From Candidatus Aenigmatarchaeota archaeon (GTDB lineage Archaea > Aenigmatarchaeota > Aenigmatarchaeia > PWEA01 > JACQIF01): 64,000 nucleotides of DNA. The position numbers and the translations under genes are program-made. The notes below the pieces were generated by a model that saw nothing but the letters and a program-made list of their open reading frames with translations, did no database searches and was not told the origin of the DNA. The DNA lies in contig CP066684.1 in assembly GCA_016432325.1 (NCBI GenBank), positions 192,001-256,000 of the forward strand, read 5' to 3'. Below, piece after piece: positions 12,221-15,666 of this stretch (the first letter of the stretch is position 1; every line of letters begins with the position of its first letter).

Positions 12221-12404
12221 GGGGCCATAGGATAACCCGGCAGTCCTGCCGGCTCCAGTTGGCGCAACTGGCGCGCTGAGTCTCCGGACGATGACAAGGA
12301 AGATACCGGCTAGTCCCGGTTCAAACCGGGCTTTCTTTAAAAAGAAAGCACGGGTGCAAAGAAACTCCGCTTTCCAGCACATGAGAATCCGGGTGGCCCC
12401 ACCA
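12221..12404 (+). tRNA. tRNA-Trp(CCA) with two introns (37/38 at ~12259-12304; T-loop at ~12326-12387)
   Basis: Acceptor GGGGCCA/TGGCCCC plus ACCA; anticodon arm GCCGG-CT-CCA-G|A-CCGGC; T arm CCCGG-TTCAAA|T-CCGGG; BHB-like junctions. Confidence 0.93.
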
Positions 12405-12471
12405 AAACGACGGGATATAGATATCTGCATGTTTTTGAACGCTTTTATTTTCTCACTGATCTGATTTAGAT

Positions 12472-12906
12472 ATGTATATTTTTGTGAGTTATTCAAAAGA
12501 AGGACTGAATTATGCTTCTATAGTAAAAAATAAACTAGCAGGAAAACAGCATATCACATTCCTATCTCATGATGAATCTTATGGAGGGTCTGAAGCATGG
12601 ACGCAAATTAGCGAAGCGTTGTACAATGCTAGGGTTGTTATATTCGTTGTGACAGAGAGTAGTCAAACATCCGATGGTCAAACGGCTGAATTCAATGCTA
12701 CAATGAATAACGCCAAACCCTACATTCCATTTATCAAGGACGGTATTGTGTTAAAACAGTTCTATATTATGACAGCTCGAAATCATATTAAATTCAATGA
12801 TTCCAACATTTCTGACAAAACGGACGAGCTTACTAGTTCTATAGAACGAATGAATATCTCCGAAGGCGATGCAATGGCAGTAAAACTTTCAAATGGTGAT
12901 AACTAA
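12472..12906 (+). CDS. stand-alone TIR domain protein
   Basis: IFVSYS (betaA), GGSEAWTQISEAL, VVIFVVT.SS..S, conserved catalytic-position Glu (TAEF), IPF. Confidence 0.85.
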   Translation: MYIFVSYSKEGLNYASIVKNKLAGKQHITFLSHDESYGGSEAWTQISEALYNARVVIFVVTESSQTSDGQTAEFNATMNNAKPYIPFIKDGIVLKQFYIMTARNHIKFNDSNISDKTDELTSSIERMNISEGDAMAVKLSNGDN

Positions 12907-13661
12907 TGGATTCTGTTGATGTTGGCAAGATAGAAACTTTTGTACATCAGATGTTGCAAGCGTACAATCACACTGCATTGTTGGATAGTATCGCCTCTGT
13001 CATAAGTTTTAATCCGGAAATACATGAGCAACTTGAATTGTCTCAAATAGGTAAGCGAACAGGTATACCGCGTAGATTCTTTTTTACTAATGACAACGTC
13101 GATAACAGTATGGTAGCAGCAGATTTTGCCCGTGCTATTGTTGCAGGAGAAAGAAACTTCTTTTTACACGAAATAGAAAAAAGCTCAGTTGTTGTTAATA
13201 TTTCAGGTTTCACCTACGAATCGATATTAAATGTAATGAGAACAATAGATAATCCAACGGATATGTTCATTCCCATAGAACCATTTTTTAACAACTTCTA
13301 CACGTGGAATAAACCCAACCATGAAAGAATACGTTTCGAATATATGAAAGAGCCAATACTACTAGCCGGTAATCAAGAAATAAGAGTACATTGGCTAACA
13401 ACAGACACTGGATTTACAGAGATTTTTATTACGAATCGCAAAGGTATTTCTTTGGCACGTAAGGAGTTCAAAGACGCCTCAACTCCGAAGGATTTTGATA
13501 TTATACCCGAGATGAATTATATCTCTCCTAAGGAGAAGTTGATGGTTTACTTCGGTAAGTCTAAGAAAACCGCAGATGACTTTGACCTAGTGATAAGAAC
13601 GATTGTCTCAAATCCCGTTGTTAATCCCAACGCCGCACTGAAAATAAGTGTTGATTCTTAA
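12906..13661 (+). CDS. uncharacterised 251-aa protein, possibly a truncated HK97/encapsulin-like fold
   Basis: TAATG overlap with TIR stop and GGTGAT SD; fold call is inference. Confidence 0.6.
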   Translation: MDSVDVGKIETFVHQMLQAYNHTALLDSIASVISFNPEIHEQLELSQIGKRTGIPRRFFFTNDNVDNSMVAADFARAIVAGERNFFLHEIEKSSVVVNISGFTYESILNVMRTIDNPTDMFIPIEPFFNNFYTWNKPNHERIRFEYMKEPILLAGNQEIRVHWLTTDTGFTEIFITNRKGISLARKEFKDASTPKDFDIIPEMNYISPKEKLMVYFGKSKKTADDFDLVIRTIVSNPVVNPNAALKISVDS

Positions 13662-13784
13662 CATCTTCTTCCAATACCAAAGCTTACTCCTAGAGATCCC
13701 TAGTGCCCGCGCCTCTGAGGACAAATAAATACCTTACTCTAGGGTGGGGTAACCTTTATATATTCCAAAGTTCGTTTAACCGGT

Positions 13785-14171
13785 ATGAAGTTAGAGCTGA
13801 TCATACCGGAGATATACAAAAACTCGACTGAGATACATGAACTCCAACAACTGTCGGATGACGTCAAATCCAACAAAATTAAGGTGTCCGTTAAGATCGT
13901 GGATGTCCCCGAAGCGGAGACTATTAAAATGCAACGAATGATGACTCCATCCATTCTACATAAAATTGGGATTAAACAAACGCAGAAAACAAAGAACCTT
14001 TATCCTACCCTTCTCGTTTGTGACGACGATGGAAAAGTGATCACGTTCTATCCGCAGAAAAGAAGAGGACGAGATGGCGGCGAGATAAGCATCAAAGAAT
14101 TTCTTAGGAGCTTCGTTAAAGGTAGGATTGTTGCGTTGCATGAGAAAAATACGTTAGAATCGTTGATGTGA
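13785..14171 (+). CDS. hypothetical protein, possibly thioredoxin-like fold without CxxC
   Basis: YPTLLVCDDDGKVITFY...SIKEFL; upstream CTTTATATA box. Confidence 0.5.
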   Translation: MKLELIIPEIYKNSTEIHELQQLSDDVKSNKIKVSVKIVDVPEAETIKMQRMMTPSILHKIGIKQTQKTKNLYPTLLVCDDDGKVITFYPQKRRGRDGGEISIKEFLRSFVKGRIVALHEKNTLESLM

Positions 14172-14172
14172 T

Positions 14173-14799
14173 ATGACTTGGAATTCCATAATTGAAGCTA
14201 CGGTTAGCGGGGTTGCCGCTGCGCTAATCTCTGCCATAATCATATTTGTAGCTAAAGCTACTCTGGGAAGAAAGTTAAAAGAAAGGTCAATTAAAACAGA
14301 GGTTCCCGACGTCTCTGGTTCTGTGTTAAACAATCCATTTTTAATATCTTTGTCCCTTACATCATTCGCTGTTGTACTAACCTTTTTTAGCATGGTCTAT
14401 TCGTGGCAAACTTTTAGTTATATTTATCTAACTGTTGCAGATTTTGTGCTTGGTATTGTAACTTATTGGATATACAATAACCAATGTCCGAACTGCAATA
14501 GAATTTTTACAAAGCGGTTACTTAACAAGGAAATATTGAAAGAAGAAAGAAGACCATATACATATAGAGATTATACGATTTATCTGTATGCAGATGGTTC
14601 CGAAAAAGACCGAAAATATCATGGCGCAGAAAAAACTAAAATGGAAACATGGAGAACCGAGAGAGAGTTTTATGAATGCTATGGGTGTACTCACGAATGG
14701 GAACGCTTATTCGAAAGAAACTTAGATCTCAGCAATAGGCCTAGACCGAATCTCATTAGAACTAAATACAATCAGCCAACCATCTTTGACAATTATTGA
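14173..14799 (+). CDS. membrane protein with a split Zn ribbon
   Basis: Three TM segments, then CPNC...CYGC. Confidence 0.6.
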   Translation: MTWNSIIEATVSGVAAALISAIIIFVAKATLGRKLKERSIKTEVPDVSGSVLNNPFLISLSLTSFAVVLTFFSMVYSWQTFSYIYLTVADFVLGIVTYWIYNNQCPNCNRIFTKRLLNKEILKEERRPYTYRDYTIYLYADGSEKDRKYHGAEKTKMETWRTEREFYECYGCTHEWERLFERNLDLSNRPRPNLIRTKYNQPTIFDNY

Positions 14800-14811
14800 G
14801 TTTCGGCAGTT

Positions 14812-15189
14812 TTATTTGAAAGGCAACTCCTTTACATTATTGCCGTAAACCATTCCATCATTATCAATAAACGTGGCATTGATTAATATCGTGGACCCCT
14901 TAAACTTTTTCAAGTTACTGCAGGGAAACACGCCATTGGGACTTTCCATTACATTCAACTCGCCAGAACAGACAATCACAGATTCGGAAGTGGCCTCGAC
15001 ATTAACTTTACATATGGGGGTTTGTGCAATCGCTGCTAGCGGGGGCGGTACTTTACTAAACCCCATTATCATTTTGTCTGAACAGGAAATGGCTATACCG
15101 GGCGTTGTGAATAAGATTGTGTATGAAATTCCCAATAAGGTCACCAGTGCAAATAGCACCACCAATCTCATTTCAGATTTTTTAGCCAT
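14812..15189 (-). CDS. secreted or membrane-anchored hypothetical protein
   Basis: N-terminal hydrophobic helix, four Cys, AGGAG SD. Confidence 0.55.
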   Translation of the reverse strand: MAKKSEMRLVVLFALVTLLGISYTILFTTPGIAISCSDKMIMGFSKVPPPLAAIAQTPICKVNVEATSESVIVCSGELNVMESPNGVFPCSNLKKFKGSTILINATFIDNDGMVYGNNVKELPFK

Positions 15190-15199
15190 AGTATCTCCT

Positions 15200-15517
15200 T
15201 TAGGTAAACGCTCCTAATATAAGAAATGTCCCGTACACGGATAAATTTAAAACAAACGCTAAAGCCGTGGATATTATACACACATCTAGCATTCTATAAT
15301 ATATGCTTAGAAGACTTTTACGATAAAGTCTTTTGCTATGGAGAATTATTTGGATGAAAATTAATAACATCCAAAGGAAAACTAAAACAAATAAACTTCC
15401 TCTGATTAGCCCGAATGAAAACAAATTCGAAGTGGCTGGCACGATTCCTAAAATTCCGATAAAAAGGCTTATCAATATGCCAAACCGTTCGGTCGGTTGT
15501 TTTTCAGCGTTGCTCAT
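15200..15517 (-). CDS. small three-TM hypothetical protein
   Basis: Hydrophobic ORF directly upstream of and co-oriented with 14812..15189. Confidence 0.5.
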   Translation of the reverse strand: MSNAEKQPTERFGILISLFIGILGIVPATSNLFSFGLIRGSLFVLVFLWMLLIFIQIILHSKRLYRKSLLSIYYRMLDVCIISTALAFVLNLSVYGTFLILGAFT

Positions 15518-15666
15518 CTACTGATCACATATGACTAGGAATCTTATACTTAAAGAATTCAAAAACATGGAGATGTCTATATCCCCACCAATTTCCCAGC
15601 CCTCCATAGCCCCCGCTAAATCAATCAAAAATAAAGAAAAAGCTAGAGTCAACGCTGAGCGCAACT

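Follow-up and report, generated by a model that had tools for sequence, protein, structure and literature searches.

In an archaeal genome, a TIR gene is coupled to the gene for a 251-aa protein that has the fold of the HK97 capsid protein and has lost the extended E-loop, and across the family of this protein the partner position is filled by TIR, nuclease or membrane proteins. The genes, their coupling, the capsid fold, the loss of the E-loop, the swapping of partners and the fusions were all established by computation, and swappable cell-killing partners on a capsid-fold protein point to an undescribed antiviral system. We consider it likely that the module has an antiviral role. The original prediction for the window (the whole stretch of 64,000 nucleotides that was analysed) had read here a stand-alone TIR with a Glu at the catalytic position, a TAATG overlap with a Shine-Dalgarno sequence and a protein following the HK97 order of elements with a very short E-loop, all within a tRNA-linked islet that has no portal or terminase nearby and none of the partners of known TIR systems. 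Both ORFs lie where it placed them (Table 1), the sequence elements that it quoted are present, and each of these readings was borne out. The antiviral reading itself is supported in outline: the model compared by AlphaFold and Foldseek with HK97 major capsid proteins and encapsulins is HK97-like, homologues occur next to, or in one chain with, TIR, Mrr, PIN-like or membrane effectors, and PADLOC assigned the pair to no known system.

Table 1. Features of the islet, with positions counted from the first letter of the window, followed by the partners and fusions of the capsid-fold family, given by locus or family member.
Feature	Position or member	Strand	Basis or remark
tRNA-Trp(CCA), two introns	12221..12404	+	islet left anchor; ARAGORN after in-silico intron removal
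28-bp site, left arm of inverted pair	12412..12439	+	60 bp 5' of TIR start
Stand-alone TIR effector, 144 aa	12472..12906	+	Pfam TIR_2, E 1.7e-11
TIR C-terminal tail, residues 126-139, predicted docking peptide	12847..12888	+	predicted complex
Shine-Dalgarno-like GGTGAT with TAATG stop/start overlap	12895..12908	+	sequence
HK97-fold protein, 251 aa	12906..13661	+	AlphaFold2 model, fold searches, 88-representative family
128-aa ORF	13785..14171	+	no family; islet cargo; none seen beside homologs
208-aa ORF	14173..14799	+	two predicted TM helices, two CxxC motifs; islet cargo
125-aa ORF	14812..15189	-	one N-terminal hydrophobic segment; islet cargo
105-aa ORF	15200..15517	-	three predicted TM helices; islet cargo
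28-bp site, second copy, inverted	15558..15585	-	26/28 identical; islet right end
TIR partners	window, L004, L005, L008		
Membrane partners	L007, L010, L015, L017, L018, L020, L022, L034		
Mrr-type nuclease partner	L019		
TIR fusions	P0076, P0083, P0087		N-terminal
PIN-like fusion	P0014		cluster mate named VapC family toxin
Mrr fusion	P0059		
DUF2254-like membrane fusion	P0068		
2TM fusion	L024		

The first gene of the pair has a TIR_2 match above the cut-off, the sole such match in the host genome. Its Glu73 (12688-12690) is at the TIR catalytic position and is invariant in the seven linked TIRs, and by analogy with other TIR domains the output of this protein would be NADase activity. The GGTGAT hexamer at 12895-12900 lies 5 nt before the start of the 251-aa ORF, and judged from this and the TAATG overlap the two ORFs are translationally coupled. 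The pair is small, with 395 residues in total.

The AlphaFold2 model of the 251-aa protein, made from an alignment with 76 family members, has a pLDDT of 96 and a pTM of 0.91. Fold searches of the PDB, viral and Atlas collections listed only capsid, encapsulin or phage-derived HK97 proteins. By a second, independent aligner the top structural match is the encapsulin of P. furiosus (2e0z_A, Z 14.6, rmsd 3.1, 203 aligned), with three other encapsulins and the HK97 prohead within one Z unit of it; 74 chains have a Z of at least 8, all of them HK97-type among those listed. An Atlas single-sequence model of the protein, with a pLDDT of 0.37, was too poor for its matches to be used. The relationship with capsid proteins and encapsulins is structural only, as the identity to any capsid protein is 6-15% and an hhalign comparison with three PF04454-positive proteins gave no significant match. 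Sequence searches of Pfam, PHROGs, NCBIfam, PADLOC and the PDB gave no match for the protein, while PF04454 (Linocin_M18) matched neither this protein, nor the 76 family members, nor any protein in the host genome.

The modelled chain consists of an N-helix (6-23), a strand (31-34), the stump of the E-loop (35-44), a P-domain strand (45-55), a spine helix (68-93) and an A-domain. It is the combination of A-domain and P-domain with the long spine helix that places the protein in the HK97-fold superfamily. The extended E-loop hairpin is absent: 12 residues separate strand 31-34 from Gln47, and the median in 74 homologs is 12. In L032, a capsid protein of a related genome that matches PF04454, the stretch from the N-helix to the spine helix is longer by about 36 residues, as counted by eye. 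Three features are universal in protomers that form shells, and the E-loop is among them (PMC11664910); in phage 80alpha it contacts the neighbouring subunit over about 1000 square angstroms (PMC5644958). From its loss we infer that the family does not close a normal shell. The 251-aa protein is probably a domesticated HK97/encapsulin subunit that forms no closed shell.

Word-indexed homolog searches were nearly empty, and the family was taken from a full HMMER scan; clustered at 50%, it comprises 88 representatives, almost all of them with an identity of 21-43%. The matches L009 (E 1e-3) and P0074 were set aside as spurious. There are four clear matches in 371 genomes of the host's phylum and three in 215 genomes of another phylum, and the gene for the 251-aa protein was not matched in a genome of the same genus that is 73% complete. 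The neighbourhoods of homologs contain integrases, type I, II and III R-M, AbiTii, AbiEii, HicAB, PIN and HNH genes. At L004:1711-3174 the TIR/capsid-fold pair is directly followed by a DUF8370/DUF8371 gene, whose 487-aa product has a C-terminus that is nuclease-like. The three PF04454 matches of the host's phylum (L031, L032 and L033) resemble proviral capsid genes, not encapsulin operons.

At all 14 loci read in which the genes are separate, a co-oriented partner lies directly upstream and ends -23 to about +14 nt from the start of the capsid-fold gene. The partner is a TIR in four, a membrane protein in eight, an Mrr nuclease in one and a truncated fragment in one. The membrane partners, which match no known family, are assumed to be toxic by analogy with the others. 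The commonest partner is an unnamed family of 120-130 aa with two TM helices plus a coiled coil (L007, L010, L015 and L020); the copy at L015 was overlooked by the gene caller and the 5' end of the copy at L007 may be broken. Longer family members are N-terminal fusions in which the capsid-fold domain follows a TIR (three cases), PIN-like, Mrr or membrane region. In the 407-aa fusion L024 (L029:8506-9729) the capsid-fold domain is combined with two TM helices and what is probably a winged helix; its gene lies just 5' of an R-M-like operon of type I, from which an HNH-like gene separates it. P0068, P0073 and L025 are large proteins with the capsid-fold domain at the C-terminus, one of them DUF2254-like, and P0069 has an unannotated N-terminal part in which a PD-(D/E)xK-like pattern was seen by eye. 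P0085, with 628 aa, is the sole case where the capsid-fold domain is N-terminal.

Partners swap inside well-supported clades. The TIR-linked L005 is 53% identical to the 2TM-linked P0004, and P0002 (TIR), P0089 (2TM) and P0014 (PIN fusion) make up a single clade with support of 99/97, in a tree whose deep branches are not settled and which has several long rows. A partner that stays the same while TIR, nuclease and 2TM effectors replace one another is the hallmark usually seen in defence systems, for instance CBASS and Avs.

The tails of the partners carry a possible docking signal. Within their last 25 residues, 7 of the 14 partners, both TIR and membrane, have the motif [IL]PE, compared with 1.3% of host ORFs, the seven carriers representing about three partner lineages and not seven independent cases. 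The tail of the window TIR has a loose version of the motif and no exact copy, and the motif is unlike known encapsulin targeting peptides.

A multimer prediction for the pair, which had been proposed along with the original reading, passed with a score of 0.77, the best of three controls reaching 0.35. The mark used for such complexes is one that 58 of 80 solved complexes and 2 of 110 mismatched pairs attained, a calibration that holds only roughly because our own alignments were used; the score may also reflect likeness to solved encapsulin-peptide complexes. Contact agreement between runs was at least 88% and the pLDDT of the partner at least 77. All of the 25 lowest-error contacts involve TIR residues 126-139, the tightest of them running to strand 46-49 and spine helix 69-85. 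On the 251-aa protein the predicted tail contacts cover residues 15-25, 44-55 and 65-88, with residues 15-25 of the N-helix in the interface. The body of the TIR enters the predicted interface through residues 43-55 and 72-85, around Glu73, so that its alphaB/alphaC face, next to Glu73, is posed against the 251-aa protein. According to this model, the TIR probably binds the 251-aa protein at the predicted interface.

Encapsulin cargo peptides bind at the N-helix plus P-domain (PMC11664910, PMC8346489), and the scaffold hook of 80alpha binds at the N-arm helix and the A/P cleft (PMC5644958). The predicted tail groove, between the N-helix and the P-domain, is the cargo-peptide site of Family 1 encapsulins and is near the hook site of 80alpha. 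Its positions are more conserved than the remainder of the protein (0.389 vs 0.309) and include 11 of the 25 best-conserved positions, by a test that mixes buried with surface residues, which are not independent of one another, and to which the buried ones contribute. The groove motifs are retained in the fusions. As a fusion needs no tail for tethering, the groove may there serve to fix the linker in an off state, or else to bind a ligand from outside.

The host genome is a single contig of 874,869 bases with a GC content of 56% and is 90% complete. Its small size and its archaeal housekeeping genes suggest an archaeon of DPANN type. The GC content falls to 0.30-0.42 across 12401-15600, against 0.56 genome-wide, which defines a low-GC islet that starts directly 3' of the tRNA-Trp(CCA) gene. 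This gene was missed in the raw sequence by both ARAGORN and Rfam. It contains a 46-nt intron at the canonical position (12259-12304) and a second of about 62 nt in the T loop (about 12324-12385), and once both are excised in silico ARAGORN accepts a 76-nt tRNA-Trp. ARAGORN finds 12 tRNAs only in the 875-kb genome, so that most tRNA genes of the host probably escape detection because of multiple introns. The tRNA-Trp 3' end has no att-like duplicate of 10 nt or more; there is a 9-nt match to it at 15583, which may be chance. Two more low-GC islands lie in the host genome (C1), at 282500-289000 and 780000-782000.

The islet is bounded by the inverted 28-bp sites, whose pattern (GGG-TATAG, an 11-nt spacer and TTTTTGAA) has only these two copies in the host genome, in a search of this genome and the homologous loci. 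The site is also present 5' of homologous modules in three other genomes (L015:6534, L027:9466 and L028:3798), and at L015 and L028 the 28-bp-like site is 60-61 bp upstream of the first gene of the module. In the window the left copy is followed by a BRE/TATA-like stretch. The site may be an operator plus a BRE/TATA promoter, a recombination site, or both. The four orphan ORFs that fill the rest of the islet (13785-15517) are convergent in layout, and three have predicted TM segments. The 128-aa ORF is probably outside the TIR/251-aa module.

Taken as a whole, these observations are best explained, albeit tentatively, by a capsid-fold decoy with an effector docked by its tail. The TIR and 251-aa genes would form an antiviral sensor-effector module, in which a capsid-fold subunit without an E-loop holds a toxic partner by the C-terminal tail of that partner. 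The tail would be seated in the groove between the N-helix, the P-domain strand and the spine helix, and in the fusions the linker would substitute for it. The pose of the TIR, with the face on the side of Glu73 against the partner, would suit an off state. When a head-tailed virus infects the cell, the capsid-like subunit would serve as a decoy for head-assembly proteins, and such viral proteins may be the trigger. The route that we prefer, though doubtful when taken singly, is that the tails of a viral scaffold or protease compete for the groove. Another, which we consider somewhat more doubtful, is that the subunit is pulled into the growing capsid lattice. Capsid assembly is sequence-specific, and with an identity to capsid proteins of 6-15% this counts against entry into the lattice. 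Either route would open and cluster the effector, and the TIR would then cleave NAD+, halting the infected cell.

A guard or toxin-antitoxin pair with some other trigger fits the same data almost as well, and we think of it as the less probable but serious competitor. The capsid-fold protein would here act only as an antitoxin or adaptor that binds a peptide, and the effector would stay off until this protein decays after host shut-off, is cleaved by a viral protease or is lost with the element, so that its capsid ancestry is a matter of history and not of mechanism. The translational coupling at 14 of 14 loci and the HicAB, AbiEii and PIN genes in the neighbourhoods are what such a pair would show, as are the covering of the TIR face around Glu73 by the predicted interface and the conservation of the surface, which is highest in the partner-binding groove and does not extend to the contact patch of the A-domain. 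However, many members are single-chain fusions, for which differential decay is excluded, the gene for the toxic protein is the first of the operon, and the whole HK97 fold has been retained where a short antitoxin would suffice.

A further idea, put forward with the original prediction, is that a self-assembling mini-shell or ring cages the effector until infection opens it. Encapsulins are the best structural matches, and an upstream cargo with a C-terminal peptide together with N-terminal fusions is the layout of Family 1 encapsulins. Yet the whole family lacks the E-loop, which is held to be universal in protomers that build shells (PMC11664910), and membrane proteins, which are unable to sit inside a shell, make up 8 of the 14 partners as well as several of the fusions. 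The cage is weakened on both counts and we regard it as improbable.

It is slightly more improbable again that the module is not for defence and works instead in signalling or stress, or as a degenerate encapsulin system whose TIR and membrane partners serve the host or a symbiosis. This would agree with the loci L005 and L007, which are amid housekeeping genes and without other defence genes, and with the lack of a known family for the membrane partners, but the TIR, Mrr-type nuclease and PIN-like partners are standard conflict effectors, the distribution is patchy and often beside integrases and R-M genes, and none of the loci showed a peroxidase, a ferritin-like protein or a desulfurase as cargo. 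Finally, a provirus or satellite remnant, with a true capsid gene beside a TIR gene by chance, is very unlikely and largely refuted: the HK97 fold, the low-GC islet at a tRNA and the integrases adjoining two homologs are in keeping with it, but the frames are intact, the coupling to effectors is repeated and independent, Terminase_6N (PF03237) and Phage_portal (PF04860) are absent from the 875-kb, 90% complete genome, and neither terminase nor portal was found in the islet or among the called genes of the homologous loci. PHROGs, viral contigs, and phage and plasmid records also gave no match, in sequence searches that reach close relatives only; the empty single-protein scans are only a weak test of absence from viral contigs.

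The preferred reading, the capsid-fold decoy, has no direct precedent among the systems compared. On the features tested the pair is not a member of the encapsulins, the viral major capsid proteins, or the known TIR and capsid-sensing systems. PADLOC gave no match for the six islet proteins, and ThsA, STING, SAVED, cyclase, Argonaute, reverse transcriptase and STAND NTPase were not found in the islet with Pfam and PADLOC. A literature search that took in few subscription papers gave no description of a defence system based on a protein with the HK97 fold.

Family 1 encapsulins (P. furiosus PfV 2e0z, T. maritima, B. linens; PF04454) have the same HK97 fold with an N-helix (Z 13.6-14.6), a similar arrangement with an upstream gene, whose product here has a C-terminal tail that is predicted to lie in the groove between N-helix and P-domain, and N-terminal fusions in archaea. 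In contrast to them, the 251-aa protein has no PF04454 match and no E-loop, its distribution is patchy and mobile, and its partners are TIRs, nucleases and membrane proteins rather than peroxidases or ferritin-like proteins, so that the redox, iron or sulfur enzyme cargo characteristic of Family 1 is not represented among them. Family 4 encapsulins are likewise truncated archaeal HK97 derivatives without an E-loop, but consist of the A-domain only, whereas the 251-aa protein retains the N-helix, P-domain and spine helix. Viral major capsid proteins (HK97 gp5, 80alpha, HFTV1) share the A- and P-domains and spine helix (Z 10-13.6), and the groove corresponds to the scaffold-hook region of 80alpha. 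The 251-aa protein differs from them in its 6-15% identity, in having no E-loop, in not being found in viral collections and in having no portal, terminase or protease nearby.

Thoeris, TIR-STING and TIR-SAVED CBASS, Pycsar, SPARTA and TIR retrons also use a TIR with a catalytic-position Glu that is interchangeable with 2TM and nuclease effectors, but the islet is without ThsA, STING, SAVED, cyclase, Argonaute or reverse transcriptase. Ccm of SaPIbov5 (7rwz) and CpmB of SaPI1 offer a parallel in that a non-viral element disturbs the assembly of helper heads by means of a paralogue with the HK97 fold or a competitor for the scaffold site. Unlike the module, these satellite proteins have no toxic effector attached, and their purpose is hijacking rather than suicide. 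In CapRel and Avs7/Avs8/Avs10, a viral head protein relieves the inhibition of an effector or clusters it (PMC12803255; bioRxiv 2024.10.26.620412). The likeness to these is in the proposed trigger logic only, since there a pseudo-zinc-finger antitoxin or a TPR sensor binds the capsid protein, while here the sensor itself would have the capsid fold. The TIR/251-aa module has no STAND NTPase or toxSAS domain. To our knowledge, the known capsid sensors have folds that are unrelated to the capsid fold. What goes beyond the original prediction is the swappable partner together with its predicted docking, by a C-terminal tail, in the cargo-peptide groove of encapsulins.

It is possible, if somewhat less assured than the decoy reading for this pair, that the family represents a novel class of immune receptor, a capsid decoy without an E-loop that bears interchangeable killing domains by means of a docking peptide or a fusion. 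Encapsulins were called the sole non-viral HK97-fold assemblies by a 2024 review (PMC11664910); if our reading is true, the fold would have a third role, in immunity. The module would then be a prokaryotic counterpart to the decoy receptors of plant immunity, and one groove would link the loading of encapsulin cargo, the binding of viral scaffolds and defence. It would also add a new system to the thin catalogue of defences in DPANN archaea.
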